A DNA stretch of 49,580 nucleotides, filler included, from Dimargaris cristalligena (GCA_003614675.1; 2 parts of 2 records of this genome joined end to end with filler, not necessarily neighbours in it); one strand, 5' to 3'. Shown: positions 3,980 through 45,466, counted from the first letter of the whole stretch. Made by a program: numbers and translations. Notes: generated from the letters alone by a model not told the origin.

Positions 3980-5102
3980 GGCTTGGGTGTGCATACAAAG
4001 GAGGAAGAATAGTAGTCATAGTGATAATAATGACTGGGTGGTGTAGTCTGTCTATATGCGCATTCAGGGGGGAAGGCCTTTTATGGGGAGAGAATATATA
4101 ATAGCCATTGCTTAGAAAGAGGAATGTATGCAGACGGCGGCTGCATTGCCGTGAGGATTTCAATTTCAAGGGGAGATCAATAATAATTACGGTCGGCTAG
4201 CCGGCTCAGTCACGTTGGGTAAATAATATAGGCCTATTCAAGGGTTTCTTCCCATTGAGCCACTACTGCTATAATAGTATATAATTGGCCTTCTATAGCC
4301 CACGGTTAATGGAGTGATGGTGGTGGAGATGGTTTGCCAGGGCAGGGGGCCCTCCTCTTCCTTCTCCTCCAACCAGCGACGGGAGGGGGCTGCGGCACTT
4401 GACCTATCATCATATATCCTATAATAGCTATTACCTATGCGCATACGGTCCAAGCGTCGTCGTGGCCCTTTTGGATTTTTCCTGCCAAAACTATATGCAT
4501 AGACAGCCAACCACACTAGAGAAACGCCAGGTGAGAGAACGTGTGGGGTATTTACCTTGGCTCGCTTTGGCCTGCTTTTCCTTTCCTTCTTTCTCATTCT
4601 TTCTTTCGTTATCGTTTAAATATTCTTTTCGTATCGTCGTCGTTCCCTGCCCTTGGATACTCTCCGTCCGTTTCTCTCACACACATCTCCCTCGTTCTCC
4701 GTGCCAAGTGCCCGCCTTTTTCCTCTGCTTGGCCAATGTCGCCCGCCGTGTGCTCGCCTGTCTATTCTCCTCTTGCTTACCTCGCCTTCTCGCTTTAACC
4801 CTTCCCTCGCCTCTGCGGTATACGCCGGTCCTTTTTATCACTACTTATTTATTTATTTAACTAGCTCACCCTCCCCGCTCGCAAACCTTCTTTTTATTTA
4901 GCCTCGCTTTGTGCTAATTGACCCGGGCGCGACCCCTCCTTCCTTGTTCTCTTTCGGCGCACTTCTCTATTCGGTGAACTGCTATTAATATACTTACTAC
5001 TCACTTATATTACCGCTTCGGTAGATACCCTATCCACACACTTTTCCTACATTGTTACTAACACTCTCCCCCTCCGCCCTGTGTGCGGCCCCTGCGCTTC
5101 CC

Positions 5103-6418
5103 ATGAACGAACTGACCAAAGTTCCCAGCTTCAGCGAACCCGATCTTTTTCACTGCACCCCCGTGGCTGCGGATCCAGGAGGTCAGTTCGTAAGCCAATC
5201 CGACTTTCTTGCTCTACCGGTGCCGCCCGTCACTCCACGTCTATGCACTCAAGGCTCGGGGGGTCTTGGCCTTGACCGGTCTTCCTCCCAGGCCACCACC
5301 GCTGGCATGTCCTCCATCAAGTCTCCCTTCATGTCACTGGTGGCCACCCCCCTCCCCGAAACCATGTCGTTCGCCACTCCCACCCTACCCATCATTGACA
5401 ATGCCGTTAACGTGCCTTACGACGACCCCCCCAATCCCACTCCCCGACACTTTGAACTTCCTCCAGTCCCCCCATATCTTGGATGCTCCCTCGCTGTTAA
5501 GCTGGGCCGCCTTTACACCCCAGTTTACGCCTATCCAGAATCCCGCCATTCTCTTCACCCCCCCAAGAGACCGCCCACGCGGAATTCCCTACTCCCCAGA
5601 CAATGCTGCTTCAAGACTCCCTGCAAAACAGCCCCACTATTGACTTTGACTCCCAATACCCCGACCTATTCAGTCCATTTTTTCCCGGGGGTCAGCTAAT
5701 AAGCCCCACCACTCCCTTCAACCCGACCGTCCTGTTTAGTCCTGCTCCCCAACCCGGCCTATCCACCCCCTTCGAATATCCGTTCAGTTTATATCAGCCT
5801 ACTCCCGATGTACCCTATATGGACCACACCGCCGACCTCAACCCGTCCACCAGTCTATTCGCACCGCTCGATGAGGTGTCCGAACCCCTATCCGACGTGA
5901 CCCGCATTCACCTCGATGCGTCCCCCTCTTCGACCCAGCGCTCCAATTCCACCACTACTGCCGCTGCTGAACGCCCTGGCCCCGTACCTTCCGATGTCCA
6001 GCCTCCCCGCCACCGCTCCGTCAAACGCCGGAAAGTAAGCCAAGGCTCCGAACATACCCCACCTTCGACCGACGAGGGCGCATCCTCCTCTACTTCCCCA
6101 CCCCCATCCGGCAAGCGCTCCGACAAGCGGCGATTCCCCTGCCACTTCGAAGGATGCACCTTTGTGTCCGCCCGAGCTTATAATCTGCGCACCCACGAAC
6201 AGACCCATTACCCTAACCAGGCCCGTGTCTTCAGGTGCGACCAGTGCTCCAAGGCGTTTAGTCGTCGCCATGATTTGGCAAGGCATAAATCGTCCTTACA
6301 CCAGGGAGAGCGGCAGTACGAGTGTTCCCATTGTAATAAGAGCTTCTCTCGGAACGATGCCCTTCAGCGCCATCTACTGAAATTCCCTAAACAGGACTGC
6401 CAGGCTGATTCTGGATAA
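5103..6418 (+). CDS. Crz1/CrzA-like C2H2 zinc-finger transcription factor; finger-bearing ORF 5603-6418, upstream part apparently split over frames at 5426-5432 and 5558-5564
   Basis: Three C2H2 fingers (CHFEGC..RAYNLRTHEQTH; CDQC.KAFSRRHDLARHKSSLH; GERQYECSHC.KSFSRNDALQRHL) match the Crz1 RAYNLR/R.HD..RH/R.DAL.RH pattern. SP/TP-rich N-terminus with a PxIxIT-like PTIDFD. 5' structure is uncertain (see findings). Confidence 0.75.
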
Positions 6419-24777: not shown

Positions 24778-24877
24778 NNNNNNNNNNNNNNNNNNNNNNN
24801 NNNNNNNNNNNNNNNNNNNNNTTAATTAATTAANNNNNNNNNNNNNNNNNNNNNNNNNNNNNNNNNNNNNNNNNNNN
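24778..24877. other. Assembly gap / artificial contig spacer: N44-TTAATTAATTAA-N44
   Basis: Exactly 100 nt, symmetric, with a palindromic 12-mer that places stop codons in all six frames. Confidence 0.95.
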
Positions 24878-27465
24878 ATGAAAACACCTTGGTGTGCTCG
24901 TAGGAGTGGGGTCCGGGTTGGCCGTATGAAGTCGACAGGCCGGCACCCCCCACGCTCGCATAAGACACCCCGGGCGATAGAGGCGCCGGATAGGCCGGGG
25001 AGGGCGTCGCCATGCCGGAATAGGGCGGGAGTAATTGGGCCGCCGTGTGGGATCGATGCGGGCGAGTGGGACCGGTTGCTATGGGTCGGGGCGGAAAGTT
25101 GGGTCCGGTGGTCGGAGGGGAGGTCCCTCCCGGATAGACGGGGGGCAGTGGATGGGGGGAAGGCCGCGGGGCGCGGGGGTTGGGCGGTCCACTTAAAGCA
25201 GGCGGAGAGCCCGGCCAATACCGACTATCAATGGGAGGAAGACGGATCTCCGAAGGCGAGTACGAAGTGGCCCGACCCGCGGCCGGCAGGGGGAGCCGGG
25301 GGAAAAGGGGGGCCGACGGACGGGGGTGGGTCTCCATGGGCCCGGTCGGGGCCGGAAAGGGGGGCGAGGCGGGGCGGGGCGAGAAGGAATAGGGACCTGG
25401 GGAAGCCGGCTGCCGGTAAAGCGGACTATGCTCGGATGGGTTACGGCGCAGGAATTTATGAGGTGAAGTGGGACTCGGTACCCGGTCATCCGAAACGCGG
25501 CTAGGTCGCCGGGGGAAGTCGGGCCAGGCGGATTCCGCGGCACTTCCGTCGAAGCCCGGTGATGGGTGGACTGGGAGTCGCCGGGGTAGGGCAGCTTGAG
25601 GAGGGACGGTGTCGGGGGAGACGCCTCTGAATATCCGGTCAAGGGTCTCGTTGAGGGGCGGTAGTGGAAGGCGGGGTTCAAAGATGTCCGCAGGGCCGGG
25701 GGGTGTGGAGGATAGCAAAGAGGGCTCCGTCAGCCGATTGCCCTGCTCAATGACATCCGAGGGGGGTGCCAACCAAGTGGGCGGCCGGGTGTTGGCTAGG
25801 GGCCGCATGATGGCCGATATAGAAGGGTAGTGCCGGGCGGGGCCCGAAACAAGGTGGGGGCCTAGATTAGGACCGGTCGGGGCGGTTGTTACGGGAGTAA
25901 TAGAGTGCCCTGTGGATAGATAGTCGCGTAAAGGAGGTAGTAGAATACCGGTCGGGGGGTCCAAAAATAAATATAAAGCGGATAAGGAGGCAAACAGTCA
26001 AGATTAATATTACTACAGGGTCTTTTGCACACAGTTGAACACGAGAGAACTGCTTCGGTCAAATACAATCCTCGATTAATGGTCCATAGAGAGGGTGAGT
26101 GAGAGAGCCCGAGAAGCGGAAGGAAGAGGGAAAGAGGGGTTAGTGGCCAAGGCCAGGGTGTAGGACAGGCGCTTATTTGGAGCAGGGATAACGAGCCAAA
26201 TAAAAATGCCGAAAGGTCAGTTGTTGACTGAAGGGGCTTCGCCGACTGAGTTAGGTTTAGGGTTATGTGAGTTGGCAGGCAACTAGTGGGTTTAAGTACT
26301 TGGAGCAGGTTATTCCGGATACTAAACGCACTTGCCCTGGACCATTGCGCCCGTTACAGAGCTAACCCTCCCCTCCTCCTCCCCCTGCAGCGGTCGGCTC
26401 GGGGACTATTCAGGAAGGCTGAACGGGGTGGAGATGGAGAGTTCCGTAACTCGTTGACTGTTCCCTTCGGTTTTCACCAGACCAAAAATCAGTAGGGAGA
26501 GGGGGTTCCGACTGACAGGGCATCTCCCTCTTTGGCTCAGCTGCTCCTTAGTCTCGATGGGAAGTGCGCATTGACACTAGTGTGCAACGAGCCTTTGGGG
26601 GTTAGACGAAGGTACCGGGCTATATTTTTAACCAAATCGGGCGAACGAGAATTCGCCCTGGGCTATTAATAAGGGAATGGGGAAAACCAGCAGACCTAGT
26701 CCATCGAGGGACAAGAGGCCCCGGCTGGGTTCGGGACACCCCGGCGATGCCGTCTAAAAGGGCACCATTATACCAGCACAAGGGGGTCGCGAATGGTGGG
26801 GATTGGGATTCTGTCGAGCTGTGAAAGAGGCGGAGTGACTGGGGCAGACATCAACCGGCCCGGTCGGCTGTCATTCATTCGGACCTAATGGCTTCTCACA
26901 AAGGAGATTATAGTCCCGTAATCCCCGGTTAGACCACGGTGCTTTAGAGCGCGAGTCTGTGGTTGCAGAAGGTGGACTGCAGTGTTTGGAAGCCACACCA
27001 CATTTGCGGGTGTGGTGAGGCAAACAGAGAAAAACACGGCCCCGTGTGGCTCTCGCCTAGCCAGCGAGCACCCATCGTTTACCAAATGACCGGTGGAAGC
27101 ATAATTTAAGGCGCCGTTGTTTACGGGAACACGCTGGGAAGCCAGTCCAGCGGCGTCATCAGGAACTAAATGCCGGAGATGTGACGAAGTGGGGAGCATC
27201 TACCCCTCTTTCGTTCTCTTTCCGTCACTCTCCCCCTCTCAAATCCGAAAAGGACCAAAGGCCTGGTCCAATACGATGGCCACCACCAGCCTCTATCCCG
27301 CTCGGGATCATCGCATTTGATGCTATAATTACACATCACTATATATAATAAATAAAAGGGTCACTTACAAGGATGGGCCAACGGCGGGGGGGGCGACGAA
27401 GATTGGGGATGGTCTGGGAGGCCAGGTGGCTGTTCGGGGGGCAGTCCACGTTTGCCGTGGGCCAT
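24878..27465 (-). CDS. Pro-rich probable transcription factor, 3'-truncated by the gap (possibly Con7-like C2H2); putative exon 1 27465-27369, exon 2 25909 to the gap
   Basis: Long open frame with repeated LPPL/LPPI motifs ending ...HSYEHTKVFS at the gap. Upstream ATG exon MAHGKRGLPPEQPPGLPDHPQSSSPPPPLAHP ends in phase 1 at GTAAGT (27368) and matches a phase-1 CAG acceptor at 25910. Exon 1 and family identity are inferred. Confidence 0.5.
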
Positions 27466-27624
27466 TACAGAGCCGGTCAAGGGCGATTAAACGGTAACTA
27501 GAATTAAAAGTGCGAAATAGGGGGAAACAGAGGGACAGGGGCGACGAGGGTTGGTTCTGGGCCATTGGTACCTTCTTCTTAGGAAGCCAGGCGGGGCGGT
27601 GAAGTGGGCGCGCGCACTAATGGA

Positions 27625-28020
27625 TACACATACACACACACACACAGACAGACAGACAGACAGAGACTGTCACCCGTACAAGAATAACGAGAGAGGGAGA
27701 GCGGCGCACACGGAGGCGGCGCGGCACTCTAAACAAATAGAACTGGGGGACGGTGCCCGTAGAAGCGACGGTACAACGAAAAAAATGGGGCAGGGAAGGA
27801 GGGCTCTAATAAGGGTATTGGGGGCGCGCAAATGATGATAAAAAAGCGAAACGGGGGAGCGGGGATCGCCCTGGGGTGAGCAGGGCTGGTCTAATTATAG
27901 AGATTGAATAAAAATACCGGACTGAATGAACCAAATAAGTCGAGGACTAGTGAGAGAAGGGCGATCGATTTGGCAGCCATAAAAACACACACACACACAC
28001 ACACACATCCACATCCACAT
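27625..28020. repeat. (CA)n, (GACA)n and (CACATC)n microsatellites
   Basis: 27625-27665 tacacatacacacacacacacagacagacagacagacaga; 27985-28020 (AC)n followed by ATCCAC repeats. Confidence 0.8.
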
Positions 28021-29344
28021 CTACAGAAAGAGAGAGCGAGAGAAAGAGGTAGCGACTGCAGGCGTCCAACTACAATACGCCTAGAGTGCTTCGGAAACCG
28101 TGGTCGAACCAAACGAGTCAACTGACGGAGAAGACGATGGAGTCAACGAAGAAGGACGAAGCCAGGTAAGAGGGTTCGGGTGCGCTCGGGCCGAATATAA
28201 ACTAGAACCTGTCCAAGCCGACGGACGGTTAGGTTAGGGTGGGCTCGATGTATGGCACTGCCAGAAAAGAAATCCGGCAAACTAGGGGGGAATAGAAAAG
28301 AGGTGGTGACGGAGGCAGGGGGGCAGTAGGCTGAAATTAGACTGGCCAGAAGAGCAGCAAAGGGGGGAGGTATACAGCGGAGGAGGCGGGATGTGGCACT
28401 AACGCAGCAGGGAATGTCTAAATGAGCCTAGTCACCACCTGCAGCCGCGCGGGATTGAATGGAACCAAGTGCGGGAATCCCCAGCACAATAGACGAGGAC
28501 TAAACGGGGCGTCGGTTGGGGCCGGCAGACTAAGGCAATTGGGGACTAATTGGCCGCAACGAGCCAAGACTATACTAAAAGGCAGCGAACGCGTCAATAG
28601 CGTAGAAGATATACAAAATAGGGGTTAGGGTGGAATTGCGAGTGGATGGGGGCCGGTTTAAATGCCCTTTAGAGGGAGGGAGATGCACTGGGTCAGTTGC
28701 TGCAAGGCAGACGGACTGGGGAATCCTCTGCTCTGACGCCGGCTGTCTCGTCGCGTGAAGGGTTCATTTGACTTGACTATATCCGCTAGTCAGTCACTGT
28801 GCGAGGCTAACCCTCGGGGTGATGCAATCTCAGGGAGCCCGGCTTAATCCATTTAGCCTTTTGGTGGACCCGTTGGCTGATAAATTGGCCTTGTAATGGA
28901 GCTAACCCTAAAAGCTGAAAGCGTTTGGGTCCCCGATCCAGGCCGCTGCTTCATTATCGGGATGCCTCTCCCCCCTGGGCAATAGTAAGTAGTAGGTTTA
29001 GTGAGGGAGATCCTGCGGCTGGCTAATGAATGAATGGACGAAGTCAACTGGTTCTCCTCTTCCACCCGTTAGCATGGTAAAAGGGGGACAGCCGCCGGTC
29101 TTTGTTGATCAGCCGGCGCCCCGCTGAAGTAACCCCGTCGACTCCACCAGAGGCCACTGCCATTAGCCGCGTTATACTTTATTTCCCTAAAATGTTTATT
29201 TGTACTGTATCCCATTGTCGACAAGCTCGGTCTAGCCTTCTCTCACGACTATGCTTCCGTACACACATCTCCCCCTGCCCGCTGCTAGTCTCTCAACATA
29301 CCCCCCCCTAGTGCTCCTATCCAACCCTCCGGTACCGTAGCATC

Positions 29345-29647
29345 ATGTATCCGCCCAGTATGAGAGGCGGAGCTGTAAGCACTCCTCCCCTTGTCAACCT
29401 AGCCGGGGTGTACCGCCCACACCCGCCCCTCAGCAGCGGCTGTGCCATGGCGGGGGCAACGGTCGAACGGACCACAATCGCAGGCAGTAGTGTCGACTCC
29501 GCCAGCAACGGCCCTGTTCACAGCCTAACCCCTCCCCCTCTCCTCCCGGGTACCTACCATATGAAGGACGGGAGAGCGGCGAGAATCGTCTGCATAAGCG
29601 ACATTGTGCGTTCCCAATTGAACCAGACGGGCAGCTGCTCTGGTTGA
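29345..29647 (+). CDS. Possible small hypothetical protein (100 aa)
   Basis: ATG in CATCATG context after a C/T-rich leader like those of real genes here; no recognisable family. Confidence 0.25.
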   Translation: MYPPSMRGGAVSTPPLVNLAGVYRPHPPLSSGCAMAGATVERTTIAGSSVDSASNGPVHSLTPPPLLPGTYHMKDGRAARIVCISDIVRSQLNQTGSCSG

Positions 29648-32295
29648 TGCGTATTACTGCATACGAATGGCCCTCTCTGCTCCATGCCATCCCATGCAGC
29701 TTCGGCAGCCCTGTGAAATGCCAAATGAGACGAGTCCAGAAAGACGGAGGCGGTGTGGGTGGAAGGGGGGAACATAAACCACCCCCATCCATACACAAGC
29801 CGGTGTCGTTTTGGTGAGGGAAGTGAATGGTAGAGGAGGAGGGATTAGGTAGGCTACGCCGATTGTCGCGGGGTTCCACTACCGAAGGGCGTGTAAAAGG
29901 GTTCCGACGGTCCAACCCTCTATAGCCCACTGATGAGCAGCCTGTACCGCCATTACTCTGAATAATCCTCTCTCAAAGCACACTTTGGTTCGTGACGGGC
30001 CCTCGACCGCATGGGGCTCGCCAAGCTTATCTAGAGGCCTGGCGGGTAAACAAAGGGTGGCTTATGGGGCAGTGTTGCCATCATACGCCCTGATTGTGGC
30101 TGGTGGGAGGGACAATCGGCAGGATTGGCACGGTAGAGGTGACCCGGTCACCACACCATTAAAACCATATCCGTGTCCCTACTATAATCCCCCTTCGTCC
30201 TAGTTTACGTGTTGCTGGAGAAGGGACGCGATGGCCTTGGACCCAGCTCATTCTCCTGGTCTGCACGGAGCTGACGGAACCGTTGCACTCTAGGGGGGTT
30301 GGTATTCGCCTGGTTTCCGTTCATTTCCGATGCTTTCCTTAGAGTCGGATAGATAGTGGCTAGGGCCGTCTATAGCTACATGAAACTGCACGGAAAAGAT
30401 GCCGAGGCCCCTTCCATCCCCCACAGGCACCGGCTATAGGGAATAAGGTGAAGGGGCCGAGTCGCTGCCAGGTCAGATGTCACCTCGCACCTTAGGATCA
30501 TGTAGGTTCGTCTCTGATCCCCCACTAAACCGTACCTAGCCAACTCCCTTCCTCGTCTAATTGACTGAAGACCTCCACCACGTGAGTGTGAAACTACTCC
30601 GAAGGTGAGAACGTTGACGTGGCGCCCTCTAGCAAATGGGGTACTCTCTCATAGATCACTCCCCCCCTTAAACGAATGCTCTCGATGCCTCCCCAACTGC
30701 CATGGCCCCCCCACCGTCACTAACCATACAGAAGCAGTAGTAGTAAACCCTAGGGCAGGGGGAATCCACCCACTTTTCATTTCGGGTGCAGTAGAGACGG
30801 CCATCATCATCATCTTCTTCTTCACAACAATAGCAAGAAGGCATCACTAGCATTAGCCCTTGGAAACAAGTCAATGTATCCTCTTTGTATCCCTCTCCCA
30901 TCTCTTTTACATTCCCATGTAGTGCTGAGTCATTAATATGAGTCGTTTATCCATGTAGGGGGATCTAGGTAAGCGGTGTAGTACGTGTAGTCTAAATTAA
31001 TAGGGATCCGCTGGGTGCTTCGATTCAGCTGTAAATCATCCCCCACCCCTGACACGGCCAGCTACTTTCGGCCGCCAAGATGAATGTCATTGACCCCGTG
31101 TTCGAGAGACCACATAGATCCTTTTCATAACACTGACTGGTCCCCCCTCCCCACCGAAGCTCGAGTAAGCGGGACCTAATCAGTGAATATGACGAACGGC
31201 TGCAAGTAAATTGCATTCACCTTCGGAAAATCAAACCACTGACTAGAAAGAACCCCGGTCCATTAGGATAAGCTCCGTGACAATTGTCCGCCAGGGAAGT
31301 AAACCCTAAATCAGCTGGGAGGACACACCTGAAGGGCGAGTGTGCGAGGGTAGGAGGGATCTCTCCTCCGGTCGGTAAATTTCTAGAATCAAGTAGCTGG
31401 AGGTTCACCACCATGAGCATCGGCAGGGCATCTCGGCCTATGGACTAGCCCCGTTTGGAATAACCCCAACTGGTCTAAGCTCTTGTGAGGAATACGCCTT
31501 GCTGGCCACCTCATTCGAGAAATAATTTCTGATGCACACTACATCACTATCACTGTACCATCCCCCCCATTCGGCCCCGCACAGATGGTCAAAAAGTCAC
31601 TCGTTATTTGCTCCTGCCACGCTAGTGTGTAGGGCGAGTCCACTCAGCTGTGCATTGGAAAAGTATAGTTTGGGGGAGATATTGAAATGCAAATGCCGAG
31701 TGTTCCGAAGGATTCGCGGGAAGAGAGAAGGGAGAGAGAGGGATAAAGTTCTTCAGCAAGACGCGAACCCTGGGTGGCTAATACCAAGCGATGCCGCCTG
31801 GTTTCCCACCCCACTCAAAAGGGGGGCCAGTCGCGATCGCTGCGAGACTTTAGTCGAGTGGATCATTTCATGGCACGATTTGGTCAAGCATAGTTAGTAG
31901 TGGGTTGGGGTGGGTGAGGGAGCTCCTGGCTACACTACGCCCATCTGGCCCTTTGGGACGGCAATACCAATTGAGGTATCTTGGACCACTGCCCAAGTTC
32001 CCACCCGTCGAGTCATTTGGAGGTTCTCTTTAGCCAATTTTGAAAATTTGACAAGCCCACAGTCCTAAATATAGTAACTAGTACAGTATTCGCCTAACCC
32101 AGGTGGGCCTAGGATCGCCCAGGCGGGAGGGGAACCGCGAATGGGAGTATCAGAGGACTCGCAGCCCCGTAAATCCACGCATCACCCAAAATAGATATTC
32201 CACATTGGGATAGGTAAAATTCATTGGTGATTGACACATAGACATGGACTGAGACCCCCAAAGGGAAGAGAATAAAGAACAACGAGCGCGGTGAC

Positions 32296-34134
32296 CTAAA
32301 ACACGGCCCCGAAGCTATACCGCCATGACATGAAACCACAGGTGGTTGGAGTTAGTTAGCCCGGGTTACGGTACACGACATATGCATAGGTAGCCGCAAT
32401 GAGGGCCAGCGTCGAAGTAGCCCATAGCCCAATTGCCATTGCGGACGTGGATGGGGGGAGTGGTCGTTGTGAACGAGTACGGCGCGGGTTTTTACGGGTG
32501 CGGCGGGGGGTTGAAGGTAGGTCAGAGATGGAGGGGTTAGTTCCAGTCGAGGTACTGATGATTAAGTAGCTGTCCAGTGAACGACGGCATAGCAGAGACA
32601 TCCACCATGGGAGATGGCAGGGGTGAAGGTGGTGTCGGTCCGTTATTCCCCACGCCATTCGTGCCAGTAGCCCCGTCCCAACGCCAAAGAATCCGCCCCA
32701 CGAATAAACGATAAACCAAAACAGATACAATGTAGCGGTGGTCAATAGAGAGGCCTTCATTGGCGAAATGGGGTGGGTCGGAGGGTGGCCGGGGGCAGTG
32801 GTATCTAGCGTCTAGAGTCAAGGAGCACATACGATTCTCGGAGGTATAAAATAAACATGTGAACTTACCCAAAGGTGGATTTGATACTCTGCCAATAGAA
32901 CTGGTGCCAGTTGCTCTTGGTCTGGTCTTCGTCACCCACCGGCACCCCCGTCTGGCGGAGGTGCAAGCGTACTCCACTCTCAGTCTGGTCCAGATCGATG
33001 CTCACTTGGGAGTAGTAGCCCTGGGGCCAGCTGGACAAGCGCCACTTTTGCTTAATACTGCGGCTGGGTTCCAGCTGCTCGTTTTCACCCGTCACATTGC
33101 CCCCGAAAAAGGAGAAGCGGCCACCGACACGAGCCTCGAACTGGGGCGCCGATCGGGTCCACGCGGCGATGCGGGCCGGGTCCGTCAGGGTAGTGTACAG
33201 CTCGGCCGCACTGGTTACGAACTCGACGGTTTCGTCCACGGTCACCGTATTGGTCACCGCAACTGGGGCGGCGCCGCCCGATGAGCCGGCGGATGGGGCC
33301 TTGACCGAGGTGGGCTCGTGGGCCGGCTTGGCCACGCGCGGCATGGCCGGGGGGGTAGGAGTGCCCAGCTGATCGGGGTCAATATACACGTCCTTTCGGT
33401 GGGATTCAATCAGGTCACCACGGAAGGCAGCTAGGCGCTCACGCAGAACCTGGGTTAGTTGTTTGCGCACCACTTCTTTGATTTCCCGCTTCTCTCGAGT
33501 TTCAGCGGTAATGGTGATATCGAACACATAGTCGCTAGTGTCGGCATCATGGGTCACCTCAGGGATGTGGATGGAACCGGCAGCCTCGGTACCATCCGGG
33601 CCCGTGCCTGGTGGTGCGGAAGTGTGAAGGAACAATTAGGGCATGTGGTGCGGCAAAGGGGTTTTAGTCGGGGCAGATAAAAGGGTTATAGGGCAAGGAA
33701 CGCCCACAACTCAATCGCTTATAGCAAATCAAAATACTCCAAAAAAAAACGGGACTGGGTTTACCAACGTACCTGACCAATTCAACTTGATTTCCAAGTC
33801 GAAGATGGTAATGACCTTGCCCTTGCGCTGGTTCAGATCGCAGTCGCCGGTAACGCTGGTCACATCCTCCGTCGTGACGTGATAGCCATTATAGTCTACA
33901 GCAACATTGGCTAGCCTGTCCTTGAAGTAGCTCTTGGCCCAGTTGATGCAGTTTTTGTCGGTCCAATGCCTAGCCGTATGGGGAATGAGGCCGGCCAGTA
34001 TAAGTGGGTGGTGTGAGTGACGGGTTAATCCTGAAGCAATAGCAGCGACTCGCCGCTGACCTGGGTCGAATTCCGTCTGCGAGTAACTTCGGAGCTTAGG
34101 CTTACCAATTGTTGACGTTCTTCCAGTTCGACAT
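32296..34134 (-). CDS. AHA1: Hsp90 co-chaperone Aha1; exons 34134-34106, 33969-33773, 33607-32869, terminal exon 32314-32296 (alternative terminal exon 32569-32356)
   Basis: MSNWKNVNNW|HWTDKNC (NxNNWHW motif), NQRKGKVITIFD, GSIHIPEV, START-like C-domain (GGRFSFFGGNVTG...IKQKWRLSSWP...NWHQFYWQSIKSTFG|FGAVF*). Confidence 0.95.
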
Positions 34135-34836
34135 GATAGATACGTAATGCAATGGGTAGGGTTGGGGGATAAATAAGGCACCAAAGGGGTAAGATTCAGA
34201 GAGTAGGTAAAATGGATGAATATTGCGAAAGACACGCCTAAATGCATTTAATGTGGTATGGGTCAATGGGGACGGGGGGCTGAAACAATCCCCCTTTCTA
34301 CAAGCTGGCTTATATTTTGGCTGTGGCGGGCCACCCATCCACCTACCTCCCACCTTTATCAAGCCCCCCCCCCCCACACTAGCCATCGTATTTTCCAGAA
34401 ACATGGGCGCAGAGCCCCTTCCCCACTGGTCAAAATTACTTCCGCCCTGCCCTTTTTTGGTATACACGAGCCCATTGGTGGCAAGAGAGGAGAAGGGGTG
34501 GGTAGCCAAATAAGAAGAATAATAAAAAAACACTGTGGGACTATGATGTACCTACTGTTTCGTTGCTAGCGGGATCCAAATTCCATTGCTTCTAGCTTTG
34601 TTCCAGCAACTGAGCCGATTAATGATCCATTATACCGTTTTACCTCAAAGGACCTTTATTTGTTAGTGGTTCCGGCGAATGGTAATAATAATAAAAAGAC
34701 ACGAATACAGGGTGCGGCTAGATAATGGTCTGGGGAAACATATTGGCGTAGAAGGAGGTGGGCAGCCAAGCAGTACATTGTCTAATGTGAGAGTAACCTA
34801 GTAGATCGCATTGCTATCGGGTTAGGCGAGCGGATA

Positions 34837-37800
34837 TCAATCCATTTCTCGACAATGGCACAGGCAGTCGGCGACGGGGCATACGTTATGGGTCATAAAC
34901 CACTCGGTAAGGTGCTTCTGGTGGCCTCCGTGACGACAGGTCTGGCACCACATGAACCACCAGTCAAAGGGGTTGCTTATAACCGGACGGTTATCTGTGG
35001 TATTAAAAAGGGAGTAGGGACAGTATAGTCGTTTATGTAGTGGGTGAGCGAAGCTGGGGTGATTCAAGGGCGGTTACAGCGGGGTCCATCGTAGGATTAA
35101 CGTAGAAGTAGTAAAATTCCTTAGTGGTTTCAGTGGCTAGGTCGGACCCTAACACAACTTACCATTCCGTGCAAGATAGGAGCTGGCCATACAAATATTG
35201 GCCGGGGTACCCAGCGATAACAGGCAGATTGGGCACGATGGTAGGGCCGCCTTACAGTTGGGACATTGCATCGACTGGGGGGCCATCAGAGTCCATAAAA
35301 TAGTAAGGGTATTAGATTCAAAAATATAGATAGATAGATATTTAGCCATGGTGGCCATGGTTGGAGTCGCAAAGCCGTATTGGAAACCCCAGTGATAGTG
35401 TTATTACACAAGACCCGACAAAGTATTTTAATATAAATTGACCAATAATTGGATCGGGTGACATACCGTATCGCTCACGCTGTTGTCGAAGCGGTTGGAA
35501 TTCATATGCTGGAACCGGCGGTTACCATCCCGGTCAAGGTTGGTTGACGGAACCCCCGCCCCACCAACCAGGTTAAGGCTTTGCATCAGGCTACTCATGC
35601 AAAAAGTGCAGCGCACAAGAATGGGGGGTTGGGAGGTGACGGTGACCGGGATCTGGTACCGGCGCATCCATTTACCCCGCTCAATATCGAATACCGCCCG
35701 TGTTTCGAACATTTGCCATTGGTCCAGTAAATCCCGGTAGCACTCTATGCACCGTTTCTTGACCGAGTTGGGGGTTGCTTGGATAGGTGAAAAGCTCATA
35801 ATCAGGGCCGCCGTTTGGGTATCCGCCGTTCGATTCGCATAATTGTCAATCAGTTCCATATTCCGGTCGGCCAGGCCCGTTAAAATCAGTCCTTCCAGGT
35901 TCCCATTTTTGACGGCCGTAGCCGTGTTATCATTGACATAGGCCAGCAGCTTGTTATCGTCGAGGAAGCGCAACGCAATGGACAGGCGCTCCTTCATCGA
36001 AAGGCCCTGCTCATTGAGCACATCCGACCAGTCCTCGCTGTAGTAGTACTTGAAAATGGCACGCAGGTATGAGTTGTCCGTACTTTTCATAAACCGGCGG
36101 TTCATTTGCTTCCATTCGTCCATGTAGGTTTGGTTGGATCGATCCACCACCCGCGAGGCGTGGGCCGAAAGGGCCATGGCAATTACTTCCAGGTTTGGGT
36201 CTAACGCATCGGAGCAAGGTATGGTTAAAGGTATAAATGAGAAATTAGTACAGAGGGTTCCCACCCGGGTAGGGTAGCCTGGGTTTGGGTGGCATATAAA
36301 GGAGTGCACTGGCCTTTGAGGCGGTTCAACTTACTTCCACTCTTGCTTAACGCCACTACACACCGCTCGCGGCAGTTGTGGAACAAGGCCCAAGCGGCAG
36401 CTTTCTCGAATTCGCCGGCCTTTTCCATCCTGTGAGAATCAGTTTAATGTACCCATGAGCGGGCAGATGGCAAAATCATCTAGTTAGTCCCGCTACTGAG
36501 TAATACACTGCGTGGGGCAATTTAAAAAGATTGCACATATAGACATACACGCGCGCGCGCGTACATTCCCCTTAGTCTTAAATTGAAAAACGCGAGAGGG
36601 AATCTAGAACTGGACTTACGTGAGTAGCGTTTCCTCAAGTCGACTCTGACTGAAATGACACCCCGATATCCGAAGGGCTAATTTACGCGGAATATCGAGT
36701 TCGCTTCCGGGGTAGATTGGGTCTTCACCCCCACCGCCTCCGCCCAAATTAACCCGGCCCATGGCTCCCGTCCCGAGCCCCAACCCGGAAGTCCCACTGA
36801 AATGGTTCATTCCCGATGGGAGATGGGAGTAGTACGAAGGGTGACTCATACCAGGGCCACCGCCCGTCATGTCGTAGTCCGCATGCTGCAACTGTTGCTG
36901 TTGCTGTTTATTTTTTAGAGCCATGACATCCCGCTTATTTAGCTCCCGAAGAACCTTCTGGATGCCCATAAACCCGAGTCGGATATTGCCTGCAATAAAG
37001 TCGCTATCTTCAGCAAGGTTGACGGCATCCTGGATCCACGACCACGCTTCCCGGAGAGGCCGGTCATGGGCGATGAGTTTGAGGTTGGTGGCCGGATCCA
37101 TAGCGTAGCCTTGCTCAGCCCGTCGTTTCATAACCATTGAAACATCCGCTTCTAAGATGGAAATTAAGCGATTGTCCCGCGTGGTGAGAGGGCGGTTCCA
37201 CATGTCCCAGCGTTGGCCAAGGGTCATACCGGAAGCAGCGGCTTTTTTGGAAGCGGGGTGAGGGTCTCCGGCCAGGGCCCCTTTCTTGAGCGAGGCTCGG
37301 CGGAGATACAAACTGGCCGGTAGCTCGTCGGCCCGCGGCTCCGGGGGCGCAGTGGGAACCAGTGGCTGGAACGTGGATCCGTCCGCCGTGGGCGTGGAGG
37401 GACCCAAGTGAAGGGATTCAATGCCTCGTTTGACCGCAGCGGGGAGACCCGGTAGCCCTTCGGCCGGCGGGGGGGCTTGCAGGTCAAAGATTTTGGAAAA
37501 TTGCTCGTCCGCCACGGCCAGGCTGCCGTGGGGATCCCAGGCCACCCGAGGCAGCTCCTCGATTTTACGGGACTCCAGATGGCCACTGGAGTTCACTGTA
37601 AGGATCCGGTAGCGGTGGGCGAACGGTGTCAGGTGGGGGATCCAGGTGAAGGTGGCGAGTGGCGCGGGGGGATCGGTGCGAATATGCCGCGTTCGCCATA
37701 GGAAGGTGTCGACGGATGGGCCAGCCGACGAGGCCGGGTTCTCCAGTGTCCCATCAAGCGGGAGGGCCATCTCTGGGTTGGACCCATTGGGGTATGCGGG

Positions 37801-39253
37801 CAGTGCCTGATTTTGGGAGAAGTCGTTGGAAAGCGGGGCCAACGTCCGCTGTTCAGTCACGGTTTGTAGGCAGTTGAGCCGGATAGAATCATTGTCGGTG
37901 CCTAAGCTGGCCAGGACTCCCCGGCGATGTGGGGAGAAGGCGATTTTACGCATGGTAGACTTGCCCTCGGACAGAAGGGGGATCTGGAGCACCCCCCGGA
38001 GGCCGTATCGGATATCCCAGATTTGGATATCCCCCTGCGACGAGTGTGATGCAAATCGGTACGGGTCAAACGGGTCGGCAGTCAGGCCAAACACGGCGGA
38101 GGTTTCGAAGCGAGTAACATGTCGGGTTTGGCGGATGTCGTAGAGGTGTAGAATACGCTGCGAGGCGGCCAAACCGCCCACCAGCAGCTGGGACTGGGAT
38201 GACGCCAACCAGGCAACCGACGAAACCGACTCTTGGAACGAATAAACACCGACAGGTCGGTCGGAGCCTGGGTTGCGCGGGTTCGATGACGTGTAAAATA
38301 CTTGGCGCGTGGCAATGCGAGAGGCTGTCGGATTGGTCCACGCGCTTGAGGGAGTCGCCAACGGGGACTGTCGGAAGGGGGTCCGGGGGAGAGCGGTCGA
38401 ATTGGGGGTGGATTTACGGGCCTCCAGCGGGTCCGAAAACTCAACCAGAGGCCGGTCCAGGGAAGAATGGCTCGAATCGCGTAAAGCTTTCGAGGGATCG
38501 ATTGGGGAGCTGGCCGCCTTGAGTCGCTCCGTGTCCCAGACCAAGAGGCCGTGCTCGTTGCGATGCCGTTCCAGCCCCACTGCGAGGAGCTTATGGTTAT
38601 GGGGGCTGTAGGATAGCACTTGGCAGTTCCGGCCGTGGGTAATGGATATTTGGGGAACACCCCCCACCGATGCTAGGGGAGTGGTTGCCGGCCGGAAAAG
38701 GGAACCGTTTGTGTCAAGGTCGAGGTCGGAAGATGCGGGCGGAGGGTATTCGACGGGCCGGGCGGAGGAGGATAATGACCCTGACAAGGGGGTTTGTAGC
38801 GATGACTGGGTGCTTCCGGTTTGGCCAAACTCGGACATGCGTAGCAATAGTACTTGGCCCATCCCGACGCCGATGGCCACCAGGTCCTGAACCTGAGGGT
38901 CGTGCGACCACGATATACAATCGATTTTATGAGGGTCATGGTACACGGAAACCACCGCTTGGCTCGGCTGGGGCTGTGCCTCCTGGGGAATGGATAAAGG
39001 CGAAGTGAATGAAGAGGTAACAAGGGGAGGAGGGCTTGGGTTAATGGAGGTCCTATAGTACGTTCGTCTGTTTTTATTGTTGGTTGCGGGGCAATGTATA
39101 GCCTTGCTGGGGTTCCTCTTACTCGGCTCTACTTTACTCTACCTTTGGGGGCTGCCAGCGATACAAGCGCAACGAATGCTCTTGAACGAGCAAAAACTCG
39201 TGGCTCTGTTGGTGGGGGGACCACAGCAAGAAGGGGGAGTTGGGCATGGTCAT
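34837..39253 (-). CDS. SEA4: GATOR2/SEA complex WD40 subunit MIOS/Sea4; exons 39253-39143, 38982-36620, 36429-36335, 36200-35479, 35274-35163, 34994-34837
   Basis: N-terminal LLWSPH...LRLY, LLAVGLERHRNEHGLLVWD, DVSMVMKRRAEQGY, EKAAAWALFH, ERLSIALRFLDD, GNLEGLILTGL, C-terminal CPNCKAALPSCPICL and WFMWCQTCRHGGH...CPVADCLCHC. Intron phases consistent. Confidence 0.92.
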
Positions 39254-42587: not shown

Positions 42588-43411
42588 ATGTGGGATGCTA
42601 GCCAGCCCAGTCCAGCTCGGAAGACCCCGAGCGACTGAGTTTGTGTAATAAAGTTGTAATGACTTGGTTGGAATATTTCGGGATAACTCTTTTGGGGCTG
42701 TAATACGATTGGCCTCTCCTTGGGGCGGGGGTATCTAGTCTGCCATCCGTGCGATTGAAGTCGACGAAAATGACAGTCTGAATGCCCCGGTGGACATGCT
42801 GTAGATGGGGGTAGGATGTCGACCAACAAATGGTATTTAGTATTTGGCCTGGTTGATGATGTGGGTGCATCATGAAGGAGAGAGAGAGTGAGAGAGACTT
42901 GGAAAAGGAAAGCCATTCGGGGTCAATAACGATCACGTGACAATCGCAATTGATCATCTACATTGGATGGGGCGATGGAGAGTCGCTGTGTTCCCCACTG
43001 ACTTACTCTCCCAGCGCTTACAGGCGGGAAAGAGGGATGTAGTAGATAGATATATGGAGAGAGGAGAGGATATAGCCAAGCGGCCTTGTAAAGCAGAGCC
43101 CTGCCTGTGGAGAGCCAAAAACCAACCCTATTGCGGCCCAGGGAATCCACCACACCAACAGACAATGGCCTTAATCTGCTTCTGATTCCTCCAACGACCA
43201 ATCTAGTTCATTCTTTCACCATTATACGCTTGTCCAGGGCTAATATCCCATTTGCCCATTATACCCTTCAGCCCGTGTTCTAACATTAGGTCTATAGACC
43301 TCTCCTTTCCTCATTTTTCCATCACCCCAACCGGCACTCCCCCTTCTGCTGTGGGACCACCACCCGGTCGTCGTTACATTCGCTTGTTAATCTATTGTTT
43401 TTACTCCCGCT

Positions 43412-44821
43412 ATGCTCCCTTTGATCCGCCCCTCGGTCACTCGCCTAGTGAGTCGTGTGGCTCAGCGCCCCTCTCTACCCCGCGCTACCTTGGCCACTGC
43501 CGCCAGCGCCAGTAAGAAAACCTACGGCAATTTGCGCGACGAGGACCGCATCTTCACTAACTTATACGGCCGCCATGACTTTCGCTTAAAGGGTGCCTTG
43601 GCCCGTGGTGACTGGCACAAAACCAAGGAGATTGTGCTCAAGGGCGACGACTGGATCATCAACGAAATGAAGGCCTCCGGCCTGCGTGGCCGTGGCGGTG
43701 CTGGTTTCCCGTCAGGCCTAAAGTGGAGCTTCATGGGTAAGAGCTCCCCGGGCCGCCCCCGCTACGTCGTGGTCAATGCCGACGAGGGTGAACCAGGTAC
43801 CTGCAAGGACCGCGAGATTATGCGCCACGACCCCCACAAGCTTGTCGAGGGCTGCTTGATCGCCGGCCGTGCCATGAACGCCAATGCCGCTTATATTTAC
43901 ATTCGCGGTGAATTCTACAACGAGGCGTCCAACCTCCAAATTGCCATTGACGAGGCCTACAAGGCCGGCCTAATTGGTAAGAACGCCTGCGGTACCGGCT
44001 ACGACTTTGATGTGTACATCCACCGCGGTGCGGGCGCCTATATCTGTGGCGAGGAGACCGCCCTGATTGAGTCCATTGAAGGCAAGCAGGGCAAGCCCCG
44101 CCTTAAGCCCCCTTTCCCGGCCAACGTGGGCCTGTTCGGCTGCCCCACGACGGTGACGAACGTCGAGACGGTGGCCGTGGCCCCCGCCATTTGCCGCCGC
44201 GGTGGCTCCTGGTTTGCCGGGTTCGGTCGCGAGCGGAACACCGGTACCAAACTCTTTTGCATTTCGGGCCACGTGAATACACCCTGTACCGTGGAGGAAG
44301 AGATGAGCATCCCACTCAAGGAATTGATTGAGCGCCACTGCGGGGGTATCCGGGGCGGCTGGGACAACCTCTTGGCGGTGATCCCGGGCGGTGCCTCCAC
44401 CCCCATGCTGCCCAAGTCGGTCTGCGAAGATGTGCTCATGGACTTTGATGGTCTGCGGGATGCCCAAAGCGGTCTGGGTACGGCGGCCGTGATTGTGATG
44501 GACAAGTCGACTGATATCGTCGGGGCCATTGCTCGTTTGAGCGCCTTTTTCCGCCACGAGAGTTGTGGCCAGTGCACTCCCTGCCGTGAGGGGACCAGCT
44601 GGCTCTACCATACCATGGATCGGTTTGTGCGGGGCGAAGCCCGCCCCCAGGAAATCGACATGATCTGGGAGTTGACCAAGCAAATCGAGGGCCATACCAT
44701 TTGTGCTCTGGGTGATGCGGCTGCCTGGCCCGTCCAGGGATTGATTCGCCATTTCCGGCCCGAGCTGGAGCGGCGTATGGCTTCGTCGGAGGAGACGGTC
44801 GCTCAGTCGGCCACCGCTTAG
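43412..44821 (+). CDS. NDUFV1: NADH:ubiquinone oxidoreductase 51-kDa flavoprotein subunit (complex I), intronless
   Basis: [47 protein letters not shown], Fe-S motif [12 protein letters not shown]...TICALGD, presequence. Confidence 0.98.
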
Positions 44822-45466
44822 AGTTGCTTCGTCGTCGGTTATGGTTACATTGACTTTAGCCACCCGCTCCCTTATTTATTCGCATTTTTCTTCCTTTATA
44901 TCCAGGTCTCTGAAAGAGCTGTTCCAATCCGAAAGGCCCAGAGTAGCCGATTAATCCACTTTTCAGCCATCTAGGTTGGTTTGATGAAGGGCGGGGGAGT
45001 GGGGTTTTGCCTCGATTGTATTTCCTTAAATTTCCAAATTTTTCCTTAGAAGATAATAAACTATGGATTCCGTTAACTTTAGAATGTAAGTGTAGGCCTG
45101 GATATGGGTGAGCCAAAATCCCTCCGCCCCTCCGCCTTTTCTTCTGCTTCGAAGGCCCATTGGGTAAAGTAGGGGAGGGGCATTGATTAAGGCAAAATGA
45201 AATGAAACGGGATAGTATATTAGTCTGTGGTGGGCCTTTGCCCATTGCTAGAGGAGCTAATAGGCTCTCACTGCGTGTCTTCTCTCCCTTTTTTTCTGGC
45301 GTGTCCTACTTATTCTTTTATTGGTGTGTATGCATCCGGATAGATTGTCAATGAATTCACCAACTCTTGCCCAGAGGAAATGAGAAAGGACTGGCCACAT
45401 TTACCCCTTCTTGCGCTATTTAGGGAATTGCCCCGGTTACTAAGCAAACTGAGCCAATTCTAAAAC

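Follow-up and report, generated by a model that had tools for sequence, protein, structure and literature searches.

Does the AHA1 gene of Dimargaris cristalligena encode one Hsp90 activator or two? The gene lies on the minus strand of the stretch of DNA analyzed here, referred to as the window (49,580 nucleotides (nt), filler included, joined from two parts of genome GCA_003614675.1), and it encodes an Hsp90 ATPase activator and co-chaperone. The usual view of Aha1 is that it accelerates the Hsp90 cycle as a freely soluble protein. A preliminary description of the locus had proposed two in-phase terminal exons, one for the canonical soluble C-terminus and one for a tail-anchored membrane isoform. 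These are better described as alternative 3' splice sites in one intron with one shared 3' end, and with moderate confidence we favor the explanation that the use of these sites would yield both a soluble and a tail-anchored Aha1.

The re-derived exon boundaries gave a spliced coding sequence of 34134-34106 / 33969-33773 / 33607-32869 / 32314-32296 on the minus strand. This distal-acceptor model matched the database protein P0005 exactly (327 amino acids (aa), ending FGAVF; 100% match in the protein search). P0005 is annotated as 'Co-chaperone / activator of Hsp90 ATPase' from Dimargaris cristalligena, and its sequence is held under two NCBI accessions, with the canonical model in both. The elements of the last intron were as follows:

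32863-32868, minus strand: donor of the last intron, GTAAGT; exon 3 ends ...TTT GG/GTAAGT at 32869
32570-32572, minus strand: proximal acceptor CAG, in phase; intron of 299 nt; 392-aa form
32555-32557, minus strand: second acceptor CAG, in phase, 15 nt further on; intron of 314 nt
32536-32540, minus strand: CTAAC within the tail-coding segment (Thr-Asn codons; all three Dimargaritales tails described below have a T-N pair close to this position), a candidate for a distant branch point, at 222 nt from the distal acceptor
32351-32359, minus strand: tandem branch-point motif CTAACTAAC, 41 and 37 nt from the distal acceptor, overlapping the stop codon of the tail
32315-32317, minus strand: distal acceptor TAG; intron of 554 nt
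32296-32314, minus strand: distal mini-exon with the third base of the Gly codon, FGAVF and the stop codon TAG; canonical Aha1 ending

All sequence claims of the preliminary description were upheld. The end of exon 3 at 32869, as given there, was confirmed in the sequence, and its distal TAG (32315) behind CTAACTAAC led to FGAVF in a spliced product identical to P0005. The proximal CAG (32570) was indeed in phase, and the AG-free stretch ahead of it counted 183 nt, against the approximately 185 nt claimed. The second CAG (32557-32555) had been missed. No other AG separates the two AG-free zones described below, and use of this CAG would yield a 387-aa anchored form without the residues YLIIS. 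Each of the three AG dinucleotides found over the final 438 nt of the intron is in phase, the intron lengths of 299, 314 and 554 nt each being 2 modulo 3. Ahead of the distal acceptor, CTAAC starts at 32359 and 32355, and the claimed overlap of the tail's stop codon with the branch point is real, with TAA at 32358-32356 lying inside the first CTAAC. Intron retention would, as had been stated, end the protein at STFG, the frame reading GGG TAA. Branch-point-like motifs were also found further upstream: ATAAC (32646) lies 73 nt before the proximal CAG, the corresponding distances in the other AHA1 introns being 55 and 78 nt, and TTGAC (32745) lies 9 nt past the last AG, at the upstream edge of the first AG-free zone. 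The CTAAC at 32540 begins 15 nt past the second CAG, and a CTGAC motif is likewise close behind the proximal CAGs. A micro-exon reading (a 14-nt exon followed by a GTACCT donor) was rejected because it shifts the frame into an unconserved open reading frame (ORF).

The segment that follows the proximal acceptor encodes a tail with three recognizable parts:

32356-32569, minus strand: tail-coding segment, consisting of the third base of the Gly codon, 70 codons and the stop codon TAA (32358-32356)
32464-32505, minus strand: basic cluster, tail residues 22-35, with 8 K/R in 14; all Arg codons are CGN and the sole Lys codon is AAA
32371-32442, minus strand: predicted membrane helix, tail residues 43-66, followed only by RNPG

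The tail of 70 residues has no internal stop and brings the protein made through the proximal CAG to a total of 392 aa. A basic, Ser/Thr/Pro-rich linker of ∼41 residues leads into a hydrophobic helix of 24 aa and the four residues RNPG, so that the basic cluster, helix (∼22 aa had been claimed) and 4-aa end of the preliminary description were all recovered. The best 19-residue Kyte-Doolittle window in the tail had a value of 1.48, and the helix was called by this scale. The predicted tail thus has the layout of a tail anchor, with one hydrophobic helix near the C-terminus and a short segment after it, and the core of the long form is made up of the two soluble Aha1 domains (in an AlphaFold2 model of the related protein P0008 this core is globular). 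When stop-to-stop ORFs of at least 60 codons were scored for a basic linker, a hydrophobic 19-mer and no more than 12 residues after it, 3 of the 335 window ORFs showed this layout, the tail included. The preliminary description had named ER, mitochondrial and peroxisomal membranes as putative targets. The helix is moderately hydrophobic and the charge of the C-terminal end is 0 to +1. Helix hydrophobicity and tail charge decide the destination of such proteins, as stated in a passage of PMC9549241 citing Costello 2017a, and for the tail described here the mitochondrial outer membrane and the endoplasmic reticulum (ER) would both fit the modest hydrophobicity and near-neutral end.

AG was excluded from the intron over two tandem zones:

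32572-32754, minus strand: first AG-exclusion zone, 183 nt, ending at the proximal acceptor; contains TTGAC (32745) and ATAAC (32646)
32317-32554, minus strand: second AG-exclusion zone, 238 nt, which takes in almost all of the tail-coding segment and runs to the distal acceptor

The second zone, over the tail-coding segment, had been overlooked in the preliminary description. Across 32754-32317 (438 nt) AG was observed 2 times, while 18.8 occurrences were expected from the local base composition (ratio 0.11); for the other 15 dinucleotides the ratio ranged from 0.74 to 1.54. Everywhere else in the window, on both strands, a stretch of 438 nt contained more AG. Both AGs that remain belong to the proximal acceptors, and after them no AG occurs before that of the distal acceptor. 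The AG-free runs of 183 and 238 nt compare with 59 and 100 nt in the other introns of AHA1. To separate the codon choice from the encoded peptide, the tail peptide was kept fixed and its codons were redrawn from the usage of the 13 long ORFs of the window: only 454 of 200,000 draws contained zero AG (mean 5.0), the tail itself using AAA, CAA, TCN and CGN throughout. The same resampling of exon 3, as a control, gave 42.2 ± 4.5 expected AG for 45 present. The avoidance of AG fits a sequence that is both coding and within reach of 3' splice-site choice, and the exclusion pattern indicates selection on that choice. RNA folding of both AG-free stretches gave z values of +1.00 and +1.44, and so no sign of an unusual structure able to loop out the tail segment; a structural or thermosensor switch, an idea with a precedent in yeast, was dropped on the basis of these values.

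AG-poor sequence was also seen elsewhere in the window. The only locus that came near in AG poverty was 4535-5120 on the plus strand, which is poor in A and G and rich in pyrimidines; its adjacent AG-free stretches (4538-4706 and 4709-4862) lie upstream of a C2H2 zinc-finger ORF at 5501-6415. On the minus strand, a 197-nt AG-free stretch at 35277-35473 ends in CCCCCAG at the 3' end of an ORF (35431-36330) of the MIOS-like gene described below, and this may be another intron with a distant branch point.

A portion of the paper by Gooding et al. 2006 (PMC1431707) describes human exons with distant branch points as marked by AG dinucleotide exclusion zones and a raised rate of alternative splicing. 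The AHA1 intron resembles these in its AG-free stretches of 183 and 238 nt before 3' splice sites. Unlike the class defined in human, it has two tandem zones in one fungal intron, the second of which runs through coding sequence, and its branch points are known as motifs only.

In the favored explanation, one donor (32869) would be joined to any of three in-phase acceptors to give two kinds of protein. Splicing to the distal TAG, behind the strong tandem CTAAC, would produce the soluble canonical form ending in FGAVF, which is probably the major one. Splicing to the proximal CAG, or to the CAG 15 nt later, would produce the Aha1 core followed by the linker, the 24-residue helix and the four final residues. 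The intron may be read as two units. In the first, the weak branch-point motifs ATAAC and TTGAC would serve the two in-phase CAGs and lead to the anchored form, and in the second, CTAAC and CTGAC just past the CAGs, together with the tandem CTAAC 37-41 nt before the TAG, would lead to the canonical form. As AG is excluded over both zones, any of these branch points would reach in-phase acceptors only, and an exclusion over both zones is sensible only if branch points besides the last one are in use. Both mRNAs would have one 3' end in common. With only 40 nt between the stop codon of the tail and the distal acceptor, FGAVF would become part of the 3' untranslated region in the long form. An mRNA without an exon junction after the stop codon is, by the usual rule, no target of nonsense-mediated decay, and the long mRNA, which has no such junction, should by this rule escape it. 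The anchored form would hold the Hsp90 ATPase activator at the cytosolic face of an organelle membrane. The use of the proximal acceptors in vivo, the insertion of the tail into a membrane, the identity of that membrane and the functional consequence are predictions made from the sequence.

The Aha1 models of related fungi were compared at their C-termini. The expectation that relatives keep a frame encoding a membrane helix at this place was borne out, at the level of protein models, in two of the five other Dimargaritales Aha1 models with a C-terminus, those of Dispira simplex (P0008) and Dimargaris verticillata (P0037), and not in the other three, which stop at TFG (the Tieghemiomyces copies P0006 and P0036, and Dimargaris xerosporica P0007, which falls in one 90% cluster with D. 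verticillata). Such stops are what an unrecognized GG/GTAA donor would yield. A model from the chytrid Blyttiomyces (P0012) ends in a similar way, at SFG, and together these (T/S)FG stops suggest a shared phase-2 intron at that codon with a downstream exon missed by the predictors. P0008 and P0037, both of 386 aa, carry tails of 71 and 61 residues directly after TFG, with the same junction residue and the same layout as the tail of D. cristalligena. All three Dimargaritales tails begin with a hydrophobic quartet and a Ser/Thr-rich stretch that includes a T-N pair, continue with a basic cluster (6-9 K/R), a Trp and then the helix, and have a best 19-residue Kyte-Doolittle window of 1.5-2.0 with 1-10 residues after it; for the tails of relatives the best window was 1.62-2.04, with 1-8 residues after it. 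The D. verticillata tail is one short of the charge threshold of the layout. Similarity between whole tails was assessed with plain shuffles and with shuffles that preserved the layout by keeping the order of linker and helix:

D. simplex and D. verticillata: plain shuffle z 8.8 (0/2000), layout-preserving shuffle z 5.1
D. cristalligena and D. simplex: plain shuffle z 5.0 (3/2000), layout-preserving shuffle z 3.2
D. cristalligena and D. verticillata: plain shuffle z 2.3 (62/2000), layout-preserving shuffle z 2.6

The P0008 and P0037 tails are, judged by these scores, clearly homologous to each other, and without the first block their similarity remained at z 7.6 (local) and 5.6 (global), with 0/2000 shuffles as good. 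A fourth tail was present in a model of Jimgerdemannia flammicorona (P0011, Endogonales), where 65 residues of the same layout follow STFG; the junction G-Y-V of this model could be a read-through of a GTATGT-type donor. The Endogone model P0001 had only an eight-residue stretch in common with the end of the Jimgerdemannia tail. A protein search restricted to longer proteins returned the Endogone model and otherwise only proteins in which Aha1 is fused to other domains. A metagenome scan with an Endogonales Aha1 alignment confirmed 1 locus (L001) of 120 pattern matches, and as its FGFGAVF is contiguous with the last exon and the intron is absent at that place, it is uninformative on the tail. 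The interpretation given in the preliminary description is thus supported in part, by the tails of the relatives and by the pattern of AG exclusion, and not in its account of two terminal exons.

Several results weigh against an anchored Aha1, and they are gathered here. The proximal acceptor has no consensus CTAAC, and among the six Dimargaritales Aha1 sequences with a C-terminus one is canonical, three end at TFG and two are tailed. When the first 11-12 residues were removed, the similarity of the D. cristalligena tail to that of D. simplex (local z 0.9, global z 2.0) and to that of D. verticillata (local z 1.9, global z 1.6) was not significant. The second CAG and the CTAAC at 32540 both fall in this first block, so its conservation could be at the level of RNA and not of protein. 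The Jimgerdemannia tail had no significant local similarity to the Dimargaritales tails (z 0.4-1.4), and P0011 is flagged as low quality, with two insertions that resemble unspliced introns. A profile of the four tails, run against longer proteins (E up to 10, 8000 candidates scored), recovered only its own seeds P0008 and P0011; a search of the ESM Atlas with the tail gave no usable match, and a search of a representative library with the 151-aa ORF of the intron gave no credible relative of the tail. In the AlphaFold2 model of P0008 the core was modeled well and the tail poorly: residues 316-383 had a predicted local confidence (pLDDT) of less than 50, and the end of the chain formed just a short helix (374-385). 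The models of the relatives come from ab initio Funannotate runs without transcript evidence, according to a part of PMC9866270. The D. cristalligena genome was obtained from single-cell co-assemblies and annotated with the JGI pipeline, and the word 'transcriptome' is absent from the main text of the genome paper, as far as the part of PMC6784888 covered here goes; neither ending had transcript support in these sources, and a search for sequencing runs over 32100-34200 listed no RNA data set. Within the window, two of three frames are open for at least 69 codons across the stretch, and since AG-free, A-poor sequence permits few stop codons, the open frame is weak evidence. Codon usage gives the tail a neutral score (+2.5 bits over 70 codons, or 0.04 per codon, compared with 0.46 in exon 3), which is due in part to AG avoidance; the other frames of the segment score -13 and -29 bits. 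The GC content at third codon positions is not highest in the coding frame.

In an alternative account, the stretch would be intron only and the FGAVF splice constitutive, made through one or more distant branch points such as the CTAAC at 32540. A distant branch point would force a long AG-exclusion zone, and with no TAG and scarce A, long open frames would arise for free and be picked up by the gene predictors used on the relatives; the shared IIST-TGTN block would then be an acceptor-like AG with a branch-point motif. The neutral codon bias, the two open frames, the ab initio origin of the relatives' models and the canonical model in both D. cristalligena database records speak for this account, as does the concentration of the similarity between D. 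cristalligena and its relatives in the block that holds the CAG and the CTAAC. We consider it possible, though not probable. It leaves unexplained that an in-phase acceptor stands precisely where the 183 nt of the first AG-exclusion zone end, that all three surviving AGs are in phase, and that D. simplex and D. verticillata are similar in one frame over the full length of their tails even without the first block. It also leaves unexplained that three or four independent tails end just past a helix after a basic linker, a layout with a background of ∼2 in 334. The opposite extreme, in which the Dimargaritales make Aha1 mainly or solely in the anchored form and the FGAVF mini-exon of D. cristalligena is minor or decaying and favored by homology-guided annotation, is quite unlikely. 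Two relatives' models do end in the tail, and for the three that stop at TFG no FGxxF mini-exon is predicted, but ab initio predictors easily miss an exon of five codons. FGAVF is moreover an exact match to the usual ending of the family, with endings of the same type in P0009, P0010 and L001, and it is preceded by the intron's best branch point and acceptor, with a tandem CTAAC at 37-41 nt. Without selection, a remnant of 18 nt would have decayed among species whose core identity is 59-64%.

The stretch might also be a small gene nested in the intron, a 151-codon open frame (32811-32356) starting at the Met of MKASLL and encoding two hydrophobic segments. The frame is indeed open for 81 codons upstream of the CAG and includes a second hydrophobic stretch. 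Against this, no Pfam family was found for the frame, and the sole match among 1.84 billion representatives (E 5e-5) was to a repetitive 661-aa protein, in 12 stretches, and was judged spurious. The upstream 81 codons have a negative codon score (-6.9 bits), and the similarity to the relatives begins exactly at the splice junction with Aha1. A nested gene is therefore very improbable, and alternative 3' splice-site choice within one intron is the explanation carried forward here.

If it is correct, the AHA1 of D. cristalligena would differ from the known members of the Aha1/AHSA1 family in the anchor, both domains being complete and the canonical isoform plain. The literature searched (titles and abstract openings) contained no membrane-anchored Aha1; the anchored co-chaperone found there was FKBP8. 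FKBP8 is specifically tail-anchored. A part of PMC13470449 describes FKBP8 (FKBP38) as an Hsp70-Hsp90 co-chaperone at the ER surface that supports membrane protein folding, and an anchored Aha1 would work similarly, although FKBP8 belongs to an unrelated PPIase/TPR family, has a constitutive anchor and comes from animals. For the gene architecture, the fungal peroxisomal GAPDH and PGD offer a parallel. A passage of PMC9549241, citing Freitag et al. 2012 and Strijbis et al. 2012, describes cytosolic and organelle isoforms of both made by alternative splicing at the coding 3' end. As is predicted for AHA1, one gene gives a second, organelle-targeted isoform by 3' alternative splicing; these genes, which encode metabolic enzymes, add a short PTS1 for the peroxisome matrix, whereas AHA1 encodes a chaperone cofactor and adds a 70-residue linker and membrane helix.

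With an isoform fixed to an organelle surface, some fungi would concentrate Hsp90 activation where membrane or imported clients emerge, a role otherwise filled by unrelated anchored co-chaperones. The locus would also be a compact natural example of AG exclusion that runs through coding sequence and constrains 3' splice-site choice. For automatic annotation, it shows three C-termini (canonical, TFG-truncated and anchored) reported for one gene architecture within one fungal order. A wider proposal, which we regard as doubtful, is that membrane-tethered Aha1 is an old, conserved second product in early-diverging fungi, kept in the Dimargaritales and present in the Endogonales independently or by descent. 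Competition between branch points within one intron, itself built of two AG-exclusion zones, would then determine how much soluble and how much anchored activator is made, perhaps under the influence of stress. The anchored share would stimulate the Hsp90 ATPase on mitochondria or the ER and so assist import or the folding of membrane clients.

The remainder of the gene had the structure expected of AHA1:

34106-34134, minus strand: exon 1, start codon 34134-34132, encoding MSNWKNVNN and the first two bases of a W codon
33970-34105, minus strand: intron 1, 136 nt, GTAAGC...TAG
33773-33969, minus strand: exon 2, first part of Aha1_N, includes NQRKGK
33608-33772, minus strand: intron 2, 165 nt, GTACGT...CAG
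32869-33607, minus strand: exon 3, end of Aha1_N, linker and AHSA1 C-domain to ...STFG, ending in phase 2

Intron 1 has a branch-point-like TTAAC 55 nt from its 3' end and is AG-free for 59 nt ahead of its acceptor, and intron 2 is AG-free for 100 nt, with ATAAC at 78 nt and CTAAT at 28 nt. Pfam detected Aha1_N (PF09229) in exon 2 (E 1.2e-22, profile positions 1-63) and in exon 3 (E 8.3e-14, positions 68-136 of 136), and the START-like AHSA1 domain (PF08327) in exon 3 (E 5.8e-25, positions 2-124 of 125). The motifs NQRKGK and NVNNWHW were present in the Aha1 sequence. As the AHSA1 domain is complete at ...STFG, both alternative endings lie outside it. Judged by its two complete domains, the canonical isoform is an ordinary member of the Aha1/AHSA1 family, for which stimulation of the Hsp90 ATPase would be the expected function.

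The upstream neighbor of AHA1 is a MIOS-like gene (35431-39138, minus strand; MIOS is a GATOR2 subunit), seen as two long ORFs with WD40 and alpha-solenoid matches. In the ∼6 kb downstream of AHA1 (26000-32300) no ORF of at least 200 codons was found on either strand, and with these surroundings the tail is not part of a neighboring gene. In the upstream region of AHA1, ∼230 nt before the start codon, there is a run of 12 G (34364-34375, minus strand). A scan for heat-shock elements with one mismatch allowed gave 9 matches where 9.25 were expected, so the match at 34388-34400 in the AHA1 promoter is no evidence for such an element. Translations of the ORFs around 27600-27700 contain repeated THTH and VCVC, which points to a CA/GT microsatellite. 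Two assembly gaps, present as runs of N at 24778-24821 and 24834-24877, lie beside and partly within a 391-codon ORF (24825-25997) that had no Pfam match. On the plus strand, an ORF for the 51-kDa subunit of NADH dehydrogenase (43391-44818) is overlapped by a 301-codon antisense frame (43973-44875), which is probably a shadow ORF.

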